NCBI GenBank assembly: GCA_965222225.1
Contig: CBDCTK010000002.1
Span: forward strand, 1,856,001 to 1,920,000
Reading direction: 5' to 3'
DNA: 64,000 nt
From: Candidatus Poribacteria bacterium
GTDB lineage: Bacteria; Poribacteria; WGA-4E; JAJDTR01
The position numbers were made by a program, and so were the translations under genes. Positions 16,525 through 25,982 of this stretch are shown one piece after another. The notes beneath the pieces were generated by a model. That model made no database searches. It worked only from the letters and a program-made list of their open reading frames with translations, and had not been told where the DNA came from. Position 1 is the stretch's first letter, and every line of letters begins with the position of its first letter.

Positions 16525-16582
16525 TTTGGTTTAGATAAGGGGCACGGCTCTAGGTTTATTGTCCAAGCTTTCAGGCTATCCA

Positions 16583-18091
16583 ATGTTTCTGATACTATTC
16601 CGCCGAGAATTGCTCGCAAATCTGATGACACTTCGATTTTTTGTCGCTGTCGTCACCTGCCTGATACTAGTCATTGCCAGTACCATCGCACTTCTTCAAG
16701 ATTACAAACACCGCCTAGCTGTCTACAACACCGCCGTGAAAACACATCGCGAGGATGTGACCGATGCCAAGACCTATTCGCAACTGCGGCTGTATGTGGA
16801 TCGCCCCCCGAACCCGCTCAGCATCTTTAACCAAGGGCTTGACAAACGACTTGGCAATACCGTCCATGTTCATCACCAATTTGTGCCTACTCTACTGGAC
16901 GCTCAACAACATGGTGTGGACAACCCCTTCCTCAATCTCTTCTCCGGCATGGATTTGGTTTTTATCTTCCAAGTTGTCCTGAGCCTAATGGCATTACTGT
17001 TCGCTTACGATGCGATCGCTGGCGAACGCGAAGCGCATACGCTTCGTTTAATGGCGACCAATCCGGTGCCTCGAAGTCTCATTCTTCTGGCGAAGTATGC
17101 GAGTGCGATGGTATGTCTCGTCTTATCGTTGACAATCAGTATCCTCATGGCGCTGTTTCTGTTAACGACTTCGGGATCAGTTGCCTTCTCAGGCGAGGAC
17201 TTTCTTCGGATACTTGGAATTCTGCTGACATCCATGATTTACCTCTCCACGTTTTATCTGATTGGACTGCTCATTTCGACTGTTTCGCGCCGTACCGCGA
17301 CAGCTTTGGTGTTCGTCATGTTTGTGTGGGTTATGCTAGTGCTGGTTTATCCAAGTCTATCTGTTGCAACCCTCGATCGATTAATAAGCACCGAGGAAAA
17401 GCTAAAAACAGCTCTGTCCGAGATAGAACAGTTCTGGGATCGGTATGATGCTGATGAGAGAGCTTCGGTCAAAAAGAACTCCGTACGTGCTTATAGCTAT
17501 CCTGCGCGCATTGGTCACGGCGACCATCTCAAATATTCCGGGGGTTACAACAATCAAACCCTGCTTCATCATAGATTTTGGTGGACATATGATTATGAAA
17601 AAATTGACGAAGATAAAGAAGAGTTGGTCCCGAATGTGAAATCCCATTGTCAGTTCATGGAATCATCCCGAATTCGCGCCGCGGAAAAGACATGGCTGGT
17701 TCGAAGAAAAGCGCTCGATCAGACCTACGGCCGCAAAGCGAATGCTGTGCAAATGGCGATCCGTTTTTCGCCGGCGGCAACTTATGATTTGGCAACAGAG
17801 GCTTTAGCAGGCACAAATCTCCAAGGGATTGAGCGTTTCGCGGAGTCGAGCCGGCAGTATCGGCGCACTCTGATTGAATATCTGCGGGAAAAGAAAGCCT
17901 TTTCCTCCAGGCAATGGTTTTCTCATGACAAAGGCAGCGTACGTTGGGACGACTTACCGCAGTTTTCCTATCAGCGGGCAGATTTGGGGAGTGATATTAT
18001 TGATGTTGTTCCAGATCTGATTCTGTTGCTGTTGATTAACTTGGTGATATTTTTGGCAGTCTTTTTGTCCTTCCGCAGACAGGACTTATAG
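16583..18091 (+). CDS. ABC-2 type transporter permease with large extracytoplasmic loops
   Basis: RRELLANLMTLRF, DLVFIFQVVLSL, YDAIAGERE..TLRL, multiple TM segments. Confidence 0.85.
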   Translation: MFLILFRRELLANLMTLRFFVAVVTCLILVIASTIALLQDYKHRLAVYNTAVKTHREDVTDAKTYSQLRLYVDRPPNPLSIFNQGLDKRLGNTVHVHHQFVPTLLDAQQHGVDNPFLNLFSGMDLVFIFQVVLSLMALLFAYDAIAGEREAHTLRLMATNPVPRSLILLAKYASAMVCLVLSLTISILMALFLLTTSGSVAFSGEDFLRILGILLTSMIYLSTFYLIGLLISTVSRRTATALVFVMFVWVMLVLVYPSLSVATLDRLISTEEKLKTALSEIEQFWDRYDADERASVKKNSVRAYSYPARIGHGDHLKYSGGYNNQTLLHHRFWWTYDYEKIDEDKEELVPNVKSHCQFMESSRIRAAEKTWLVRRKALDQTYGRKANAVQMAIRFSPAATYDLATEALAGTNLQGIERFAESSRQYRRTLIEYLREKKAFSSRQWFSHDKGSVRWDDLPQFSYQRADLGSDIIDVVPDLILLLLINLVIFLAVFLSFRRQDL

Positions 18092-18189
18092 GATCAAGCG
18101 AGTGAATAGCGAGCGAACAACCGACCGGATAGGGAGGACGATAGACAATCCCGTGCGATAGAGTTCCTACTGCGATAAAGATTCCATTA
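18089..18189 (+). repeat. Modular A2-B3 repeat insert inside an AGGACTTACGCA repeat
   Basis: Two 22-nt A units and three 17-nt B units; homologous inserts at 23348-23400 and 23433-23534. Confidence 0.6.
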
Positions 18190-18238
18190 CGCAAGAGGAC
18201 ATGCAATCTCCAACGAATCCCACATTGGTGAGTATTCT

Positions 18239-19678
18239 ATGATTTTTGGCATAGCGAAACGCGAACTTTACGACAACATGATGAGCCTCCGATTCGCGCT
18301 GATTGTGCTGATGATGCTCACAGTAATGGTTGCCAATGCCGTTGTCTCCCTCGGCAAATACAGTGAGCAAATCGGCGATTACCATAGAAATATAGCCGAT
18401 GAACTCAAGGAGATGGAGCTCCACGCAGAGAGTCTTCCCGATTTGGTCTTGTATGGGCCCGGTGAACTCCATAAGCAGCCTTCCGCACTTTCGTTTTGTG
18501 CGAATGGCGGAGAAGCCTTTCTTTCCAATAATGCCGATGGCAGGCCATTGGAACGGTGGTGGGGAAGCTACCCAGTCCGATTCAACGGCATCTGGCGGAT
18601 GACTTATCCTCAAAGCAATCCAAGCCTGTGGGATCTCCTGCCGGATTCTACTCAGATGGATTGGGCATTTCTGATTGGAGTTGTGTTGAGTTTCGCCGCG
18701 ATTCTGTTTACTTTCGACGCCATCTCCGGAGAACGCGCGCGCGGGACGCTACGCTTAATGCTCGCCAATAGTGTTCCACGCCACGTGGTGTTGGGCGGCA
18801 AATTTCTTGGGGCGCTGATAAGCATTGGTCTTCCATTTCTCATGGCAGTGTTGGTCAACCTCTTTCTACTTTATACCTCTGTCAGCATCCAGTTAGGAAC
18901 AAGCGACTGGGCGCGGTTGGGAGTAATCGTTCTGATTGGTTTCGTCTACATAGCCATCTTTATCACACTGGGGCTGCTGATTTCCTCCCGCGCCCGGCAA
19001 TCGTCATCAAGTTTGATGGTTCTCACTTTAATCTGGGTTGTCTGGGTGATTTTGATACCAAACACCGTCGGGTTGGTTGTCAGAAGTCTTAAGCCGGCAA
19101 TGACTAGTGACGAATTTCGCCAACGACGGGAGGAACTGTATCAGCAGGTGACACAAAAATATCTGGATCGGGGGCTGCTTGATGCTGATTTTACCCCGCG
19201 TGAGATTCCGCCTGCAAAGGTCACCTTGTTGTGGGGCGAGTATCACCTAGAAGAATCCCTCGGTGACGAAAGATTGCTTGAGGCACATTTGAGAGCGCAA
19301 ATAGATCAGGTTGTGTTTGCGAGATCGTTGGCACGCGTATCACCCGCAGCTGTCGTCCAGTATGCCATCGAATCCTTGGCGGGAACGGGCTTCTCACGAC
19401 ACCTACAGTTTCTTTCCCAGGTCAAGATTTATGTGTCCGAGTTTCGAGACTTCCTCGTCGAAGTCGACAAAGCGGACGCGGAAAGTCCCCATGCGCTCTT
19501 TTTTCCATATGCGATTTCGTGGAAGCCTGTGCCTATTGACGCCATCCCGAAATTCAAGGACCGCTACAGCTTCGGCGAATCGCTAAATGATGCTACTGTG
19601 GATACGTTGCTGTTGGTACTGGTCTTTGTGGTGTTATCCGTCGCATTATTTCTTTCTTTCCTTCGGGTTGATGTTTAG
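18239..19678 (+). CDS. ABC-2 type transporter permease (paralog of the upstream gene)
   Basis: KRELYDNMMSLRF, DWAFLIGVVLSF, FDAISGERARGTLRLMLANSVPR, SPAA...LAGTG. Confidence 0.85.
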   Translation: MIFGIAKRELYDNMMSLRFALIVLMMLTVMVANAVVSLGKYSEQIGDYHRNIADELKEMELHAESLPDLVLYGPGELHKQPSALSFCANGGEAFLSNNADGRPLERWWGSYPVRFNGIWRMTYPQSNPSLWDLLPDSTQMDWAFLIGVVLSFAAILFTFDAISGERARGTLRLMLANSVPRHVVLGGKFLGALISIGLPFLMAVLVNLFLLYTSVSIQLGTSDWARLGVIVLIGFVYIAIFITLGLLISSRARQSSSSLMVLTLIWVVWVILIPNTVGLVVRSLKPAMTSDEFRQRREELYQQVTQKYLDRGLLDADFTPREIPPAKVTLLWGEYHLEESLGDERLLEAHLRAQIDQVVFARSLARVSPAAVVQYAIESLAGTGFSRHLQFLSQVKIYVSEFRDFLVEVDKADAESPHALFFPYAISWKPVPIDAIPKFKDRYSFGESLNDATVDTLLLVLVFVVLSVALFLSFLRVDV

Positions 19679-19925
19679 AGCTTGTTTGAGAACGTTGTTT
19701 GCCAACCTTGGGAACTTTCATACTTTTCATACCTTTCATACCCCAATGGAAGTTTTCAATAGAGACAAAAAAAGGGTTATAACCCTTGCTATGACTGGGT
19801 TCTTCGAAGTTTCGACATTAAAACCATCCAAGAGGAGGTATGAAACTGTAGTTGTCACTCGGAACAGATTGAAATCTCAGATTGACACGATTTTCATAGG
19901 AGAAGATGGCTTTTCAAGCAGGCTC
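19678..19925. mobile_element. MITE-like element, GAGCCTGTTTGAAAA-type TIRs
   Basis: gagcttgtttgagaa ... ttttcaagcaggctc, flanked by TTA/TAA; same TIR family as 40117-40267; internal 9-mer tandem (tttcatac). Confidence 0.6.
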
Positions 19926-20149
19926 TAAACTTGACCGGATTGGTCAGGTTTTCCACCTTAAATCTCCTTCATTTCTGTCAAAGGATGGGAGTACGTTCAG
20001 ACTAATTTTCTGGTATTCTTGGGTAGGTCAATTTATAATAGATAGCATAGGCTTGTATCCAATATATTATTGACGAGTTTATCCATTTAGATTTTGCTTG
20101 CGCAGTCGTAACTCCAGCTTATTCCAATTTCTGTTACTTAAGGAAGATA

Positions 20150-20776
20150 ATGCAGAACGATTTACGCTACCGAACGATACTACTTTTTGGCCCTCCGGGA
20201 GCTGGAAAAGGCACACAGGGAAAAATTCTCGGATCGATACCCGGTTTCCTTCACGTTGCCTCCGGCGATGTTTTTCGATCGCTCGATCCTACCTCTGAAT
20301 TGGGAAAAATCTTTGCTGACTATTCGTCACGCGGTGCGCTCGTACCCGACGACCTGACGGTTAAGATGTGGGAGGAGCATATGCAAAATCTGACCGAAGA
20401 AGGGACATACAGGCCGGATAGTGCATTATTGATTCTTGATGGCATTCCGCGGAATCTAAACCAAGCACGGCTAATGGATGAACACATTCAGGTTCTCAGC
20501 CTTATCCATTTGGGATGTGAAGACGAGGATGCGATGGTTGACAGGCTAAGTCGGCGGGCGCTTAAAGAGAATCGCGCCGATGATGCCCGCGAAAAGGTCA
20601 TACGACATCGCTTGAAGGTGTATGAACAGGAGACGCAACCTGTAATCGACTACTATTCCGCATCGCTCGTAAACGTGGTTGATGCGCTTGGCACGCCTGC
20701 CGAAGTCCTTCAACACGTTCTCAAGCTGGTTGCTCCGATGCAGCGCTGCTGCTTTCCTGACGGCGTTGAGACGTAG
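20150..20776 (+). CDS. Adenylate/nucleoside monophosphate kinase family protein (short LID)
   Basis: GPPGAGKGTQ, GDVFR, GALVPD, LDGIPR, R.DD..VI.HRL.VY. Confidence 0.85.
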   Translation: MQNDLRYRTILLFGPPGAGKGTQGKILGSIPGFLHVASGDVFRSLDPTSELGKIFADYSSRGALVPDDLTVKMWEEHMQNLTEEGTYRPDSALLILDGIPRNLNQARLMDEHIQVLSLIHLGCEDEDAMVDRLSRRALKENRADDAREKVIRHRLKVYEQETQPVIDYYSASLVNVVDALGTPAEVLQHVLKLVAPMQRCCFPDGVET

Positions 20777-20824
20777 GCTATGAACCGGACGCTGTGGGGA
20801 ATAACGAAGGATTTCTACAAGAAA

Positions 20825-20848
20825 TCGCGACCGGGAGATCGCTCCTAC
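20825..20848 (-). repeat. GTAG-type REP
   Basis: Reverse complement reads GTAGGAGCGATCTCCCGGTCGCGA. Confidence 0.6.
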
Positions 20849-21010
20849 GAGGACCTACACCCGTGGAGATCACACACAGGTGCTAAGATAATTAGGGGTG
20901 ATGGCGATGCTACACTCCTGTCGCGCCGCGGTTATGAAATCGGCTGGCGGTAGTTTATTGGTTGTCATTGATTAAATTCAGAGGCAGAATAGGTATTCAT
21001 GAGGTGTAGA

Positions 21011-21769
21011 ATGGGTTTGGAAGATAAGGTTTGTATCGTTACGGGAGGTGGAAGCGGCATCGGCCGTGGCGCGGCTCTGCTGATGGCGCATAACGGGGCC
21101 AAAATTGCGCTCGCAGGGCGGACCGTCTCAAAGGTTGAAGTGGTAAGAGACGAGATTGAAGCCGCTGGCGGCTCGGCGCTGGCATTTGGGTTGGATGTCG
21201 CAGATTACGAGGCTGCTCAACAGATGGCAAAAGACGTATTCGCAGCCTTTGGCAGAATTGACGTGCTGGTGAACAACGCCGGACACAGCTCTAAAAACCG
21301 CCGTCTCCTGAACATGACGCCGGAAGAGATTCGTCAAGTCGTTGATTCCAATCTGATTGGTACAATCTTCTGTACTCAAGCGGTAGTACCCTTTATGTTG
21401 GAAGCTAAGAGCGGAACAATTATCAACGTGTCGTCAGTTGCCGCGATACAGCCGGGACCTTTTAGCGGACCGGCGTACGGCGCAGCGAAGGCAGGGGTGA
21501 ATAATTTCACACAGTTTCTCAATGCCGATTTGGTGAATACGGGAGTAAGAGCGAGCGTGATCATGCCGGGAGAGATTGATACACCCATTCTCGATCTGCG
21601 TCCAGTCCCTCCAACGGCTGAAGCCCGTGCAACAATGGCGGATATTGAGGATACTTCGGAACTCATTAACCTCATTGCGAGCCTTCCACAAAGAGCCAAC
21701 ATACCAGAAGTAATAATCAGACCGACAATGCAACGAGACGTTTCGAAGGAAATTCAGTCTGGACCATAA
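21011..21769 (+). CDS. SDR family oxidoreductase
   Basis: TGGGSGIG, NNAG, YGAAK, PGEIDTPIL. Confidence 0.9.
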   Translation: MGLEDKVCIVTGGGSGIGRGAALLMAHNGAKIALAGRTVSKVEVVRDEIEAAGGSALAFGLDVADYEAAQQMAKDVFAAFGRIDVLVNNAGHSSKNRRLLNMTPEEIRQVVDSNLIGTIFCTQAVVPFMLEAKSGTIINVSSVAAIQPGPFSGPAYGAAKAGVNNFTQFLNADLVNTGVRASVIMPGEIDTPILDLRPVPPTAEARATMADIEDTSELINLIASLPQRANIPEVIIRPTMQRDVSKEIQSGP

Positions 21770-21907
21770 ATTGGCAATCCGTCCTCTCAGGGTGTGCCGA
21801 ACCAAAGATTCACCTAAGCGTATATGTAGAAGCGATGGGCGGTCGGAGTGAATCCCAAAATTGTGACATTTGAATGTACTTCATTATACCTATTTTAGGG
21901 GACTGAC

Positions 21908-23140
21908 ATGCATGCAGAAATAGTTATGATCGGCAGCGAGCTTCTGCTAGGAGAGCTTGTTGACACGAACGCCAACAAATTGGCAATAGCCCTTCGAAAC
22001 ATCGGGCTAGACTTATACTACAAAACCACCGTTGGTGACAACGAGGGGCGCATTACCGATGTCTTAAACCTTGCTCTGGACCGCTCGGATGTGGTTATCA
22101 CCTCCGGCGGAATTGGACCGACCGTCGACGATGTAACACGCCAAGCTGCGGCAAATGCCACAGGGCGCCGGTTGGTCTACAGCAATGCACTGGAAGTGGA
22201 GATTGCGGAGCGTTTTCGTGGGTTTGGACGAAAAATGGCGGAAAACAACCGACGTCAAGCCTATTTGCCGGAAGGCGCGTTGCCGCTCACGAATCCTGTC
22301 GGTACCGCTCCCTGTTTCTTGAGCGAGGATGTGGGCGGAAGAGGTTGCGTCATCTCGCTGCCCGGTGTGCCGCGGGAACTTTTGCACATGCTGGAAAATA
22401 CGGTAATCCCCCTGTTAGTGGAACGGATTGGTGGAATCAAGGTGACTAGAATCCGAGTTTTGCGCACCTGTGCAGTGGGTGAAAGCAACATTGATCGGGG
22501 AATCGGCGATCTCATGACTGGAGGCAATCCTACCGTCGGGTTGGCGGCACATTCGGGCCAGACCGATGTGCGAATCGCAGCCAAAGCAGACACTGAGGAA
22601 GAGGCGGACGCGCTGATCGATGGGATGGAAACTGAACTTCGGAAACGTTTGGGTATCGCTATTTACGGCGTGGGCAAAGAAACGGTGGCCGACGTAGTAG
22701 GCAGTCTATTAGCCAAATGCTCCCTAAAACTCGGCATAGCAGATACGCTTACAGATGGCCAGGTTGCCAGGGATTTGACTGAGGCAGGTTACGGGGAATT
22801 GATTGCCACGGATTCTTGGTCAAGGGATTTGACCGAAGTATTAAAGTCCGCCGGTCTGCCTGCCAATCCGGCGAAAACGGACAAGCGATCATTAGCAGAC
22901 TCCCTTGCTAAAAGCGTGAGACCATCTGATGCTGATGGAGTCGGTCTGGTGATGCTGGGTCCCTTTGAAGACAACTCGACCTGTGTCTTCCTGCATGGTC
23001 CAGGCGATATGTGTTTATTCAAAAATGGCCGCCATTATCAAGCCACAGCCCATGTTAACCGATGGTTGGTCATCCAAGGGTTGGACTGGATTCGCCGTGC
23101 AGTGCTGGGGACGTTGGAATCGCCGGTGGACTGGAATTAA
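21908..23140 (+). CDS. cinA: CinA family protein (molybdopterin-binding/COG1058 N-domain; degenerate PncC C-domain)
   Basis: IGSELLLG..VDTN, VGDN, SGGIGPTVDDVT, NRRQA, NPVGTAP, LPGVPRE. Confidence 0.85.
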   Translation: MHAEIVMIGSELLLGELVDTNANKLAIALRNIGLDLYYKTTVGDNEGRITDVLNLALDRSDVVITSGGIGPTVDDVTRQAAANATGRRLVYSNALEVEIAERFRGFGRKMAENNRRQAYLPEGALPLTNPVGTAPCFLSEDVGGRGCVISLPGVPRELLHMLENTVIPLLVERIGGIKVTRIRVLRTCAVGESNIDRGIGDLMTGGNPTVGLAAHSGQTDVRIAAKADTEEEADALIDGMETELRKRLGIAIYGVGKETVADVVGSLLAKCSLKLGIADTLTDGQVARDLTEAGYGELIATDSWSRDLTEVLKSAGLPANPAKTDKRSLADSLAKSVRPSDADGVGLVMLGPFEDNSTCVFLHGPGDMCLFKNGRHYQATAHVNRWLVIQGLDWIRRAVLGTLESPVDWN

Positions 23141-23321
23141 CCACCCTTGCGTATCAGGACGGACAAATCCATCGGTAGCAGGTGAGCACTAACGTTACGA
23201 CTTCTAGTCGGTCGAGCCAGAGGCAAACCGGAAGCTTGTCCTGACCAGAGTTTAAGGAAACCGAAGACCAAGATAAAGAAATTCGTGCTGTCTCGCCCTC
23301 ACTTCTACTTTTATTCTGTTT

Positions 23322-23611
23322 GGACTTACACAGCAACAGGAGGTCGCTACGGTAAGCAGGATCAACCGAGCGGATAGTGAGGGCGATAGAGATCTTCTTG
23401 CCCTACCGCGCATCGGCGGTCGCGACCGGAGGCGATCTCTATGGGAACTCTATCGCAGCAGGCTCTCTATCGCACTCCTTATTCAGTCGCTTGATCTATT
23501 CGTTCCCTCGATCACTCGCTATCCACTCGTTTGTTCGCTCCTACAGGATTGTGGCCTCGAAACACGAAATAAACTCCGCGAATTTTTAGATGTTCAATTG
23601 CGAAAGTCCTA
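23322..23611. repeat. AGGACTTACGCA-type shell containing two REPs, each split by a modular insert
   Basis: ggacttacacag ... ttgcgaaagtccta; internal REP halves gcaacaggaggtcgc/ccctac and tcgcgaccggagg/tcgctcctac. Confidence 0.55.
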
Positions 23612-23662
23612 TCTGTTTTTCTCCCCACTCATGTACCTTCCCTTGTCCAAGTCAATAAGAAC

Positions 23663-24945
23663 CTGAGGTTTCCAAAAGAATGAGAAAAGCTTGACACCTC
23701 TGGGATAAAGCGTTACCCTTGGATGAAAATGCTCCCGGAGGATGGCTACGATGCTAGAAAGGTTGAACGAATCGCTTCGATTTTAACGGTGGCTTCTGTA
23801 TAGCAAGTTCCGCGACAATCGGGAGGAAGCAATAGAAATTCTGTTGGTGTTGGTGGTAGGACATGTTTTCGGCTACTATACGCCCCACCAATTGGCCCAG
23901 AGATTGGATATACCCAAGAGTCAACTGTACGAAGAATTGAAGTTTTGGAGTATCTATCAATGGAGACGTCAGTTGATGGTGATGGGGAGTGAATTGGCTG
24001 TTGAGCTTTTGCAGGAACTTGAAGGCAAGAGTGCCTCGACGCACTCTCGTATGCGTGTGACTATTGGCGTCGACGACACAGTGATAGACCGTTTGGGTCG
24101 AGTCTTGTCGATGACATATTCGTGGTGGAGTGGTCGTGCCAAGAAGGTGGTTCGTGGTCAGAATATTCTTGGTATCACCATCAAGATTGGGTGCATGGTC
24201 GTTCCCTTGGTAGTACGCCCTGTCGGCAAACAAGGACGCGCTAACACTTCCAAGCCAGAAGTTTTTGAGACCATTGTGGCTCAAGTCATCGCCTTTTTCA
24301 AAACATAAGGGATTGACTTGACCGAGTATCCTATCAGTTTCGACACGTGGTATGGCTCCGAAGAATTGGTGACTTTGCTGACCGACAAAGGTTTCGACCA
24401 GATTGCCATTCATGCCAAGAGCCGCTATGTATTCACCATTGGGCAAAGTCATCTGCCATTGAGTGAACATAAGCGTCAAATCGAATTGATAGAAGGTCAA
24501 TGGGGGTGTGGAAACACACCGGTCGCACGTTGCCAAGCCCAGAGTCCAACCTTCGGGAAACTGATATTGTTGCTGTTTCGACAAGGAGGGCAGCTCAAGG
24601 CCGTTATGATGTTTGGTCGGAAGTTGCGAGCATGTGAGATACTGGCCATCTGGCAGCAACATCATGGCATCGAGCAGTTCTGGCGTGCTCTCAAGACCGT
24701 CTTGCAGATTCGTCAAATGAGATTGCGTGGCAGACAGGGCGTCTATGCCACTTTGGCAATCAAGGTCATCGCCTATCTGCTGATGCTGAGAATCGGGTAC
24801 TACTCTCATTTTACACGCCAGCAAATCCAAATGGAAGTCAGTAAACAACTGGACATTCAACACTTCTTCAATGAGCATTTTCATCCCAACGATGCGGCTA
24901 TACCAGCATGAACACTATAAGAAACAAGTCTCATGGAAACGTCAG
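23663..24945 (+). mobile_element. IS4/IS701-superfamily insertion sequence
   Basis: TIRs ctgaggtttccaaaaga / tctcatggaaacgtcag enclose a DDE transposase gene; internal TTGACA-17-TACCCT promoter. Confidence 0.8.
23742..24911 (+). pseudogene. IS701-like DDE transposase with two in-frame TAA stops
   Basis: A single frame from ATG 23742 has VDDT, FDTWY and HGIEQFWRALK motifs; stops at 23784 and 24306. Confidence 0.8.
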
Positions 24946-24988
24946 TTAGTAATTCGATGGAAGCACTTGCGGGGCACTGGATATATTA

Positions 24989-25982
24989 ACCAATGGTGCT
25001 AGTTTGAAATTTGGAGGTTAATAAGCATAACATTCCCTTTTGGCTTTGCTTTAACGCGAAAGGTATCAGGGCATGAGACGATTTCCTCGATTCTTCCGTT
25101 AATTTGAGTATCGGTAGCTATCAAATAACGGGAGGAAATCTAGACTCATGACCATAGTAGATTTTATCACAGAACTGTTTTGTCGTGTTGATGATAAACT
25201 CTCACAGCACGGTAAAAACCATAAGCATAGCCAAGCCAAACTTTATCCGTCTGAAGTGGTTACCATTGCCATGCTCTTTGCGCTCAAGGGTGTGGGTAAT
25301 CGAGCCTCCTATCGCTGGATAGCGAACAATTTCAAATCCTTATTTCCGATGTTACCCGAGCGTACCCGATTGTTCCGCTTATTCGACGGGCATCAACATC
25401 TCATTGACGTTTTTATGGCGAATCCTTCGCTTATCGGTGGAATTGACACGTACGGTATTGAATTGATTCACCCGCGCCGAGAAGGGCGCTCTAAACGTCA
25501 AATCGGACGCAAAGGCATTTCCAACCAACGATGGATTGTAGGTGGAAAACTTTGCTTGCTACACAATCATCTCGGACTGATTGTCAACTGGGACTGCGAC
25601 ACTGCCAATGTACATGATGGGAGTGCCTTCCAACATCTCGTTGATGGGGTCAGTGACCAGATGGTTGTTTTTGCCGATGTAAATTTCGCCAAAGCGGATT
25701 GGTTCCCTTCCAACTTGCGTCTGTGCCGACGTGGCGAGTGGAATTCTCGGATGCTGTGAGTGGAATTCTCGGATGCTGGTAGAAACGATTTTGTCCATGT
25801 TGACGCTAGTGTGCCATTTTAAGAAAGTCATGCACCGTCGTTGGAGTTACTTCAAAACGCGAGTCGGCTTTACAATGGCTTTGGTCAATCTCTTGGTACA
25901 GTGGAATGGATTGTCGATTGACGACGATGGCTTTGTGCCTCTGTCAATAGCTCAATTCAGTCTCTAAACTAGCACCAAAGGT
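24989..25982 (+). mobile_element. IS982-like insertion sequence
   Basis: TIRs accaatggtgctagttt / aaactagcaccaaaggt (AC...GT ends); TATTA target duplication on both sides. Confidence 0.8.
25148..25967 (+). pseudogene. IS982-like transposase, frameshifted by a 22-bp tandem duplication
   Basis: DFITELFCRVDD, SEVVT, IDTYGIEL, R.LVET; gagtggaattctcggatgctg is duplicated at 25736-25778. Confidence 0.8.

Follow-up and report, generated by a model that had tools for sequence, protein, structure and literature searches.

This study focused on the nature of a short, repeated insert found at three sites in a 64,000-nt stretch of DNA (the window) from the genome of a Candidatus Poribacteria sponge symbiont (G000; 5.70 Mb in two contigs, 50% G+C). 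The window corresponds to C2:1856001-1920000, C2 being the contig of ~5.6 Mb, and an initial annotation of its sequence had described the insert as a string of A units followed by B units, each in variable number. The inserts are best explained as copies of a non-coding, non-autonomous, strand-specific and hairpin-seeking mobile DNA unit, with a Y1 transposase as the most plausible candidate for the mobiliser, a reading to which a probability of about one half is assigned. One strand of the unit folds, and its stem has been kept by compensatory changes. Copies occupy fixed positions, either the loop or the foot of a repetitive extragenic palindrome (REP) hairpin, some other hairpin, or, within an older unit, its loop or the point where hairpin meets tail. 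Copies are gained and lost between species and decay once inserted, and the composites that they form (unit within unit, or REP plus unit) have themselves been amplified. In size, the unit seems to rank among the smallest known mobile DNA elements.

Unit structure, family size and covariation

The basic unit is ~37 nt long (35-37) and consists of a head, GATCAA, a 17-nt hairpin, NNGANN-GRATA-NNGANN, and a tail, GCGATAG(AGATCC). The A unit of the initial annotation corresponds to head plus hairpin, and its B unit to the tail. In the aligned unit, numbered 0-36 (G0ATCAA5 N6N7 G8A9 N10N11 G12-R-A-T-A16 N17N18 G19A20 N21N22 G23CGATAGAGATCC36), invariance of the named letters ranges over 82-100%, is mostly at least 94%, and reaches 95-99% in the head, while the N positions vary freely. 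Units of the own genus carry two GATC sites, and the only match between the two ends is GATC...GATC, which is 4 nt long and invariant. An outer stem formed by these two sites was considered and set aside, as its invariance makes it uninformative and the second GATC is absent from the other unit-bearing genus. The earlier statement that the insert has neither terminal inverted repeats (TIRs) nor an open reading frame (ORF) holds, although the hairpin nature of A had been overlooked.

A genome-wide profile search for A and B, as had been proposed, revealed a very large family. A hidden Markov model (HMM) built from 30 strict A1B1 copies and run with nhmmer on G000 gave 503 matches at E<=1e-5, 788 at E<=1e-3 and 918 at E<=1e-2, the last set falling in 747 loci. 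Position-specific scoring matrices for A and B (threshold 14, with the reversed sequence as control) found 1443 A tokens (control 2) and 1120 B tokens (control 33), and the bare hairpin skeleton matched 1016 times, compared with 42 for the reversed pattern. The nonamer GCGATAGAG, from the tail, occurs 560 times over both strands, where ~43 occurrences are expected for a random 9-mer. Taken together, the family comprises about 900-1400 copies in G000. No match to Rfam was found, either at E<=1 in window positions 17000-25000 or at E<=0.1 in three other unit loci.

Evidence that the unit is a folded one came from covariation in a set of 525 distinct full-length copies. When all pairs of positions were ranked by mutual information, the top four were exactly the four stem pairs, namely 10-18 (1.16; 97% paired), 7-21 (0.87; 94%), 6-22 (0.65; 95%) and 11-17 (0.45; 97%). 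Stem pairs were Watson-Crick or G.T in 94-97% of copies, against 52-79% expected from column composition, and each of them was found as G-C, C-G and A-T. Mutual information between different stem pairs was at most 0.17 bit, and with such low linkage a few subfamilies cannot explain the covariation signal. The hairpin comprises two 2-bp stems parted by tandem G.A/A.G, where G8.A20 and A9.G19 are invariant purine mismatches, and a GRATA loop. Cells with G.T or T.G numbered 272 and those with A.C or C.A only 26 (~10:1), which means that the fold belongs to one strand, the purine-rich one. All four stem pairs are formed in 673 of the 1016 skeleton matches, in all five A copies of the window, which differ in their stem letters, and in 12 of 14 genuine copies from the second unit-bearing genus.

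Insertion sites, nested arrays and distribution

Mobility was examined by comparing 400 kb of the nearest sister genome, G005 (~86% identical to G000 overall, and 94-99% around the window), with G000 in both directions. An IS3-family transposase gene of G000 (orfB; C2:1604008-1604776, minus strand) contains two units 300 nt apart, one of them in the loop of a 6-bp hairpin; the gene is an intact frame of 285 codons in G005, and is split into ORFs of 157 and 111 codons in G000. At another locus a unit has landed between hairpin and tail of a second unit, pointing the other way; this second unit is intact in G005. At a third locus, a GTAGGCGGGGCA-TCT-TGCCCCGCC REP hairpin that is likewise intact in G005 holds an 88-nt composite in its loop. 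An orthologous flank of a RAYT (a Y1-type transposase gene) is empty in G002, a genome with an orthologue of the first window site, and filled in G005. No target duplication was seen at any of these empty/filled pairs; 1-3 target letters are missing in each case, with breakpoints that are ambiguous by 1-2 letters. Such unit-sized empty and filled sites without duplication bear out the earlier view that classical cut-and-paste, with TIRs and target-site duplication, is not involved. The tabulated insertion contexts (REP loops, the loop and the hairpin/tail junction of other units, and the IS3 gene) likewise uphold the idea of a repeat-targeting micro-element, the targets being more generally hairpins. 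Ligation of a GATC-ended fragment into GATC sites was ruled out, as the observed empty sites have no GATC.

Each REP family carries units at one fixed position. REP4a (GTAGGGTG..CACCAGCC) was empty in 106 copies and filled in 39, the unit pointing the same way as the REP in 34 and the opposite way in 2. The figures for REP4b (AGCCCC..GGGG/ACAGGT) were 24 empty and 59 filled (49 same, 0 opposite), and those for REP5 (GTAGGCGGG..CCCCGC) were 15 empty and 26 filled (22 same, 1 opposite). REP1 (GTAGGAGC..CCTCC-GGTCGCGA) was empty in 11 copies and filled in 5, with the third site of the window among the latter. Over REP4a, REP4b and REP5 the orientation relative to the REP was therefore the same in 105 cases and opposite in 3. 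The loop position of REP5 holds many stem variants, in groups of 1-4 units, and this variety at a single position argues for repeated hits, while REP4b mostly carries one unit variant, which argues for copying of the composite. Left flanks share only G[C/G] before the unit, and many units follow ...GCG and begin with ATC. The GTAGG noted earlier is part of the host REPs and lies 3-4 nt upstream of the unit. Inspection of these GTAG hairpins and of their RAYT is in keeping with ordinary REPs.

The A-then-B order, described for the window as fixed, proved to be general, being kept in 646 of the 664 same-strand arrays in which both units occur. The array strings on C2 included AB (464), A (318), B (312), AAB (93), AA (74), ABB (31), AAAB (17), AABB (15) and ABAB (15). 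Nearly all arrays (1394 of 1448) were confined to one strand; mixed-strand arrays numbered a few dozen, and inverted combinations (aB, bA, AbaB and others) at most 7 arrays per type. Many of the A units at the front are 5' parts, and many of the units at the back consist of the 3' half of a hairpin plus a tail. There were 16 composites of the form half-full-half, and in these the outer half-stems pair with each other at 4/4 positions in 12 cases and at 3/4 in 3, while the outer 5' half and the inner 3' half pair at only 0-2 of 4 positions. The outer half-stems thus pair across the inner unit, indicating that a unit landed in the loop of an older one. One and the same combination is shared by 14 of the 16, so this composite has multiplied as a whole. 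Pure nesting (A^nB^n) was rejected as the sole route, since arrays with two A and one B (93) far outnumber those with two of each (15). In the preferred explanation, and at the same even odds, each variable A(n)B(n) string would be a stack of units that are nested, truncated or decayed, and not an array written separately.

The distribution of the family was surveyed across 176 genomes of the phylum using the skeleton pattern (<=1 mismatch), with the reversed pattern as a control. All 10 genomes of the own genus carry it, at 597-1296 copies each, as do all 4 genomes of one genus belonging to another family, at 206-215 copies. The remaining genomes had either none or 1-19 copies, and the reversed control gave 0 in all 176. 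Low counts in three other genera (three genomes) sit on few contigs, some of them short, and are likely to represent binning carry-over. In the second unit-bearing genus the head, hairpin and GCGATAG are retained, the tail is different and the second GATC is absent; GTAG directly precedes 5 of 14 copies. There were 0 unit matches in a collection of viral contigs. Among named genomes, the unit pattern matched at least 110 stretches, and all 80 matches listed were from Candidatus Poribacteria metagenome-assembled genomes. This phyletic pattern is of the selfish type.

Mobilisation and competing explanations

The placement of the units along the chromosome bears on whether they act as DNA or RNA. 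Their orientation relative to flanking genes was sense in 277 cases and antisense in 250, with 133 in convergent and 131 in divergent gaps, and 772 of 915 units lay outside ORFs. When one unit was kept per 2 kb, the folding strand lay on the C-rich strand in 326 of 509 cases (binomial p = 2e-10), and in 190 of 283 where |skew| exceeded 0.02; the bias persisted in both classes of gene orientation. Such placement fits a single-stranded DNA event at replication forks, or strand-dependent loss, and not an mRNA element. The GC skew of C2 changes sign about ten times rather than twice, and unit orientation flips along with it; the repeated flips reflect either many inversions or assembly joins.

In the mechanism that we favor, the unit would move as single-stranded DNA, or into it, where a replication fork or an extruded hairpin exposes such DNA, and a trans-acting protein would read the shape of the hairpin together with the invariant letters of head, loop and tail. 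Candidates for this enzyme would be the Y1/HUH (RAYT-type) transposases of the genome, whose REPs are the commonest hosts, and units would presumably also hitch-hike whenever host REPs are copied. Y1/HUH transposase matches were present in 34 of 41 relatives, genera without units included, and numbered 5 in G000, which has one intact RAYT of 157 residues. The repeat flanking the RAYT is GCCCC-AGA-GGGGC + GACAGGTG in three genera, and several genomes of the own genus have units within the RAYT-flanking REPs, no more than ~100 nt from the gene ends. HUH transposition of the IS608 kind is letter-precise, with the active strand on the lagging-strand template.

A number of observations weigh against this reading. 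No cognate enzyme was found among the candidates, and Y1 numbers do not track those of the units: G008 has 1 match and 889 units, while one genus has 2-10 matches and no units. RAYT relatives that are 70-77% identical (a figure for identity alone) occur in a unit-free genus, where the flanking repeat is without units, and the RAYT's own REP, GCCCC..GGGGC, is a hairpin different from that of the unit. Unlike IS608, the units cost 1-3 target letters, and their folding strand is the opposite one if G>C marks the leading strand. Clean orthologous cases of presence and absence number only about six, from the 400 kb of one sister genome and 20 RAYT loci. A variant shared among filled REPs may go back to a single insertion whose composite was then copied, or to gene conversion, and independent insertions are thus fewer than the counts suggest. 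Flank stems of at least 5 were found for 25.5% of units and 15.6-17.9% of controls, an enrichment that is only mild, since the flank is often another unit or the foot of a hairpin; the proposal that every unit lies between complementary flanks was dropped for this reason. With DNA energy parameters the hairpin was predicted in 1 of 548 copies, and DNA folds of single units were no better than those of shuffles, although neither RNA nor DNA parameters are calibrated for such GA-rich mini-hairpins in DNA. Lastly, gene calls were crude longest-ORF calls, which covered 82% of contig C2.

A more novel and more tentative reading, which we consider possible but rather doubtful, is that the unit moves by an undescribed transposition chemistry. 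A single-stranded module of ~35 nt would be recognized by its GA-mismatch hairpin and spliced, strand-specifically, into the tip or foot of any DNA hairpin that is exposed, replacing 1-3 loop letters ("loop replacement"), by an enzyme new to mobile DNA and shared horizontally by two genera of Poribacteria. If true, no smaller structured unit capable of transposition would have a defined fold for its recognition.

Among the alternatives, which rank in the order template switching or conversion, RNA role, and reverse transcriptase (RT) or primase writing, all of them below a trans-acting single-strand enzyme, the best is an enzyme-free one. Here the replicative or repair polymerase would switch templates at stalled hairpins, the nascent end leaving the hairpin, copying a unit from another place through microhomology of 1-3 nt and then coming back, and gene conversion between the many REP copies would also spread units. 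It would account for the slightly imprecise junctions, with 1-3 target letters lost and no duplication, for unit ends (G...C) that match target letters, for hairpins as targets, for an orientation that follows GC skew, and for the abundance of partial units and chimeric arrays (AAB 93, AA 74, ABB 31); REP arms would supply homology for conversion, and many filled REP4b copies do share one variant. However, it leaves unexplained why stems are free to vary and yet remain paired while head, loop, G.A and tail are 95-99% invariant, why the orientation rule in REPs is near absolute (105 same, 3 opposite), and why sister genera lack the family although they share the REPs and the RAYT; the two insertions in a unique IS3 gene without REP homology also speak against it. 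On balance it is improbable.

A functional RNA motif appears less likely again. In that case the unit would be a GA-rich, protein-bound hairpin in untranslated regions, selected by the host for stability, processing or termination of transcripts. RNA energy parameters do favor the hairpin, with the covarying structure being the minimum-energy fold in 336 of 548 copies (for the whole 37-mer, 368 of 548), and G.U-type pairs are frequent. Contigs assembled from the RNA libraries of two studies span site 1 of the window and run into sites 2 and 3, with DNA carry-over possible, and the contig stops at 23495/23496 fall in a high-depth repeat. Set against this are the lack of a preference for the sense orientation (277 vs 250) or for convergent gaps (133 vs 131), the copies that break an IS3 gene, the decay and changing number of units in orthologues of site 1, the sister genera without the family, and the absence of an Rfam match.

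The initial annotation had suggested, as a possibility, iterative error-prone templated synthesis (RT- or primase-like) at nicked hairpins. In such a model, arrays would be written in place from a small RNA or DNA template by an RT, a telomerase-like enzyme or a primase-polymerase, and this is slightly less credible than an RNA role. It would suit the occurrence of tail-only units, or of half-hairpin plus tail, behind full units and of head-only partials before them, the differing unit numbers at one orthologous site, and the small target losses, as expected of target-primed synthesis. However, in the 16 composites that allow the test, the partial units are explained as two parts of one older unit between which a nested unit has come to lie. 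G000 has a single, weak RVT_1-like gene (27.5 bits), encoding a protein of 670 residues at C2:4499560-4501572 (minus strand), which recurs in 5 of 9 sister genomes, in 1 of the 4 genomes from the second genus with units and also in unit-free genera. An RT as writer of the arrays was rejected, as this lone match is weak and its distribution does not fit that of the units. A master copy beside a gene, which the annotation had envisaged, was also not found: there are 88 same-strand pairs of a tailless A unit and a tail lacking A, spaced by 300-6000 nt that include genes, and none encloses a recurring gene set. The RT version of the writing model has found no support, with a mismatched gene and no master copy, while primase-polymerase genes were not searched for. 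By eye, the neighbors of the RVT_1-like gene resemble restriction-system genes, and the gene is patchy in four genera, which suggests a defence-type RT.

It is very unlikely that the unit serves a host protein as a double-stranded binding site polarised with replication, be it for a nucleoid, a GATC-methylation or a segregation factor. The two GATC per unit in the own genus, the orientation bias with GC skew and the mostly intergenic location would suit such a site. Against it stand the Watson-Crick covariation, which with its tolerance of G.T marks a single strand, the lack of the second GATC in the other genus, a patchy phyletic distribution, and the units that have been inserted into a transposase gene.

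The window sites and comparison with known systems

At all three sites of the window, direct reading of the sequence located the A and B units where they had been described, and nhmmer gave no fourth locus. The A skeleton ATCAANNGANNGRATANNGA (<=2 mismatches) has 7 matches in the window compared with 1.14 expected, a number reached by 0 of 100 shuffles, and 5 of the 7 are the A units of the initial annotation (18093, 18116 and 23361 on the plus strand; 23476 and 23516 on the minus strand). The tail nonamer (<=1 mismatch) has 23 matches compared with 12.07 expected, with exact copies at 18155, 23383, 23448 and 23465. The parts of the three sites are listed in Table 1.

Table 1. Components of the three unit-bearing sites, in window coordinates
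Site	Component	Position	Strand	Basis or remark
1	Unit A1: head GATCAA and 17-nt hairpin, 4/4 stem pairs	18092..18114	+	sequence
1	Unit A2: degenerate head GAACAA and hairpin with a different, fully compensated stem, 4/4 pairs	18115..18137	+	sequence
1	Three tail (B) units, increasingly decayed: ACGATAGAC.., GCGATAGAG.., GCGATAAAG..	18138..18189	+	sequence
2	Left arm of decayed host hairpin (GTAGGCGGG type)	23351..23359	+	sequence, G005; G005 form nearer consensus
2	Complete 37-nt unit in host hairpin loop: head, hairpin (4/4 paired), tail GCGATAGAGATCTT	23360..23396	+	also in G005
2	Right arm of host hairpin: CTTGCCCTACC	23397..23407	+	consensus CTTGCCCCGCC
3	3' part of host REP: CCTCCGGTCGCGA	23420..23432	-	copy counted among filled REP1
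3	104-nt composite: full A, 5' partial A', full A, two B	23433..23536	-	
3	5' GTAG-tagged part of host REP: GTAGGAGC	23537..23544	-	

The claim that the insert always lies inside another repeat applies to two of the three sites. At site 1 the array (18092-18189, plus strand) begins one base past the TAG stop of an ABC-2 permease ORF (16559-18091) and is followed by a second ABC-2 permease ORF; the CAGGACTTA-TAG before it is simply the 3' end of the upstream ORF. A host repeat CAGGACTTACGCA with TTA duplicated had been reconstructed here, but the orthologues differ at this point, and the supposed target duplication is unsupported, as they read otherwise. Across the genus, four genomes have arrays differing in length and make-up, with other unit numbers in G005, G001 and G002, five sister genomes have an unrelated 64-nt spacer, and in one no orthologue was found. 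The G002 orthologue has ~240 nt of unrelated sequence added within the tail part of the array, and in one DNA-type metagenome contig 107 other letters replace the array.

Sites 2 and 3 lie in the gap after a CinA-like gene. The host at site 2 is a hairpin with the unit in its loop, of a decayed GTAGGCGGG...CCCCGCC type rather than the REP that had been reconstructed. At site 3 the host was correctly recognized as a REP, GTAGGAGCGA|CCTCC-GGTCGCGA; the composite within it represents a subfamily, with ~80%-identical copies across the genus. A block of 264 nt (window 23398-23662), comprising the right arm of site 2, all of site 3 and 126 nt beyond, is missing in G005, and one metagenome contig has the same shorter form, skipping 266 nt at 23396-23663.

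Other features of the window were observed in the comparison with G005. Positions 18175-38299 (C2:1874175-1894299) are 94-99% identical to G005 while surrounding synteny blocks are ~82-90% identical, which suggests a recent exchange between the two species. A repeat of ~245 nt at 19685-19930 overlaps an ORF without Pfam match (19587-19928) and has dozens of copies, 70-87% identical, in G000 and G005. At ~24989-25982, ~995 nt of G000 are missing from the otherwise collinear G005, and the ORF within this block (25148-25759) has the DDE transposase domains PF13612 and PF01609; the block is thus a recently acquired insertion sequence (IS). The DNA of a 376-codon ORF without Pfam match (23754-24884, minus strand) is 96-99% identical in G001 and G005, far better kept than its neighbors.

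The unit was compared with several known kinds of small element. Miniature inverted-repeat transposable elements are defined by TIRs of 15-30 bp, a target duplication and a length of 70-300 bp; the unit has 35-37 nt, ends that match only in the 4-nt GATC, and no duplication. Mini elements derived from IS200/IS605 (PATE-like) have single-strand hairpin ends and a replication-strand bias, and they insert beside a fixed target of 4-5 nt without duplicating it. The unit has one hairpin, no duplication and a strand bias; it loses target letters, and its left flank is no more than G[C/G]. The BOX elements of Streptococcus pneumoniae, boxA-boxB(n)-boxC with modules of 45-59 bp, are MITE-like as a whole and resemble the units in their modular order and in having one module of variable copy number. 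The Poribacteria modules are, by contrast, two parts of one 37-nt unit, and their numbers stem largely from nesting and truncation. IS1397 is said to insert into palindromic units, and IS elements inserting into REP hairpins were reportedly surveyed by Tobes and Pareja in 2006; the specific targeting of REP hairpins is common to both, but those are full IS with transposase, TIRs and target duplications, and the 37-nt unit has none of these.

REPs, and the REP doublets known as REPINs, are associated with RAYT (Bertels & Rainey 2011, PMC3116915), and REPs sitting inside palindromes have been described (Di Nocera et al. 2013, PMC3733652). Like them, the units are short, high-copy and mostly extragenic hairpins with compensated stems that form mosaics with other motifs, and Y1 genes are present, with the host REPs at their flanks. 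A 17-nt hairpin within 37 nt is also an imperfect palindrome with a compensated stem, as REPs are, at about 20-40 nt. The differences are that the unit itself has no GTAG or CGTC tag, that its stem is only 2+2 bp with tandem G.A, that inverted doublets, as in REPINs, are rare among its arrays, and that the cognate repeat of the nearby RAYT is another hairpin. The unit behaves as a parasite of REPs and not as a REP itself.

Literature searches found no paper on intergenic repeats of Poribacteria. To our knowledge, mobile DNA so small, without TIRs, duplication or a linked gene, is in print for only one cyanobacterial family, the mechanism of which was never found. The family described here has about a thousand copies per genome in ten near-complete genomes of one genus, and a tail variant in a second. 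A measurable recognition fold and clear target rules (hairpin loops, one strand) lead to testable biochemical predictions and to a comparative gene search. The units also break genes, such as that of the IS3 transposase, build hypervariable intergenic arrays that differ between strains, and are likely to confuse the assembly and binning of sponge-symbiont genomes.

The cyanobacterial family is that of the small dispersed repeats (SDRs) of Nostoc punctiforme and relatives, of ~20-27 nt, which Elhai et al. reportedly described in 2008. In the later literature, SDRs are given as units of ~20 bp, tandem in variable number, that "might be mobile" (PMC2884548); SDR5 is inserted exactly between letters 3 and 4 of GCGATCGC (PMC4390886); and SDR-like repeats were not found outside Nostocaceae (PMC5861425). 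As far as these descriptions go, SDRs are the closest published analogue, since both families are very small, non-coding, and both dispersed and tandem in variable number. Insertion at fixed points of other repeats is also common to them. They differ in size and host (~20-27 nt in Nostocaceae, 35-37 nt in Poribacteria), in a comparison made by description and not by sequence. Should loop replacement prove to be the mechanism of the Poribacteria units, it would provide a mechanistic key to the cyanobacterial SDRs as well.

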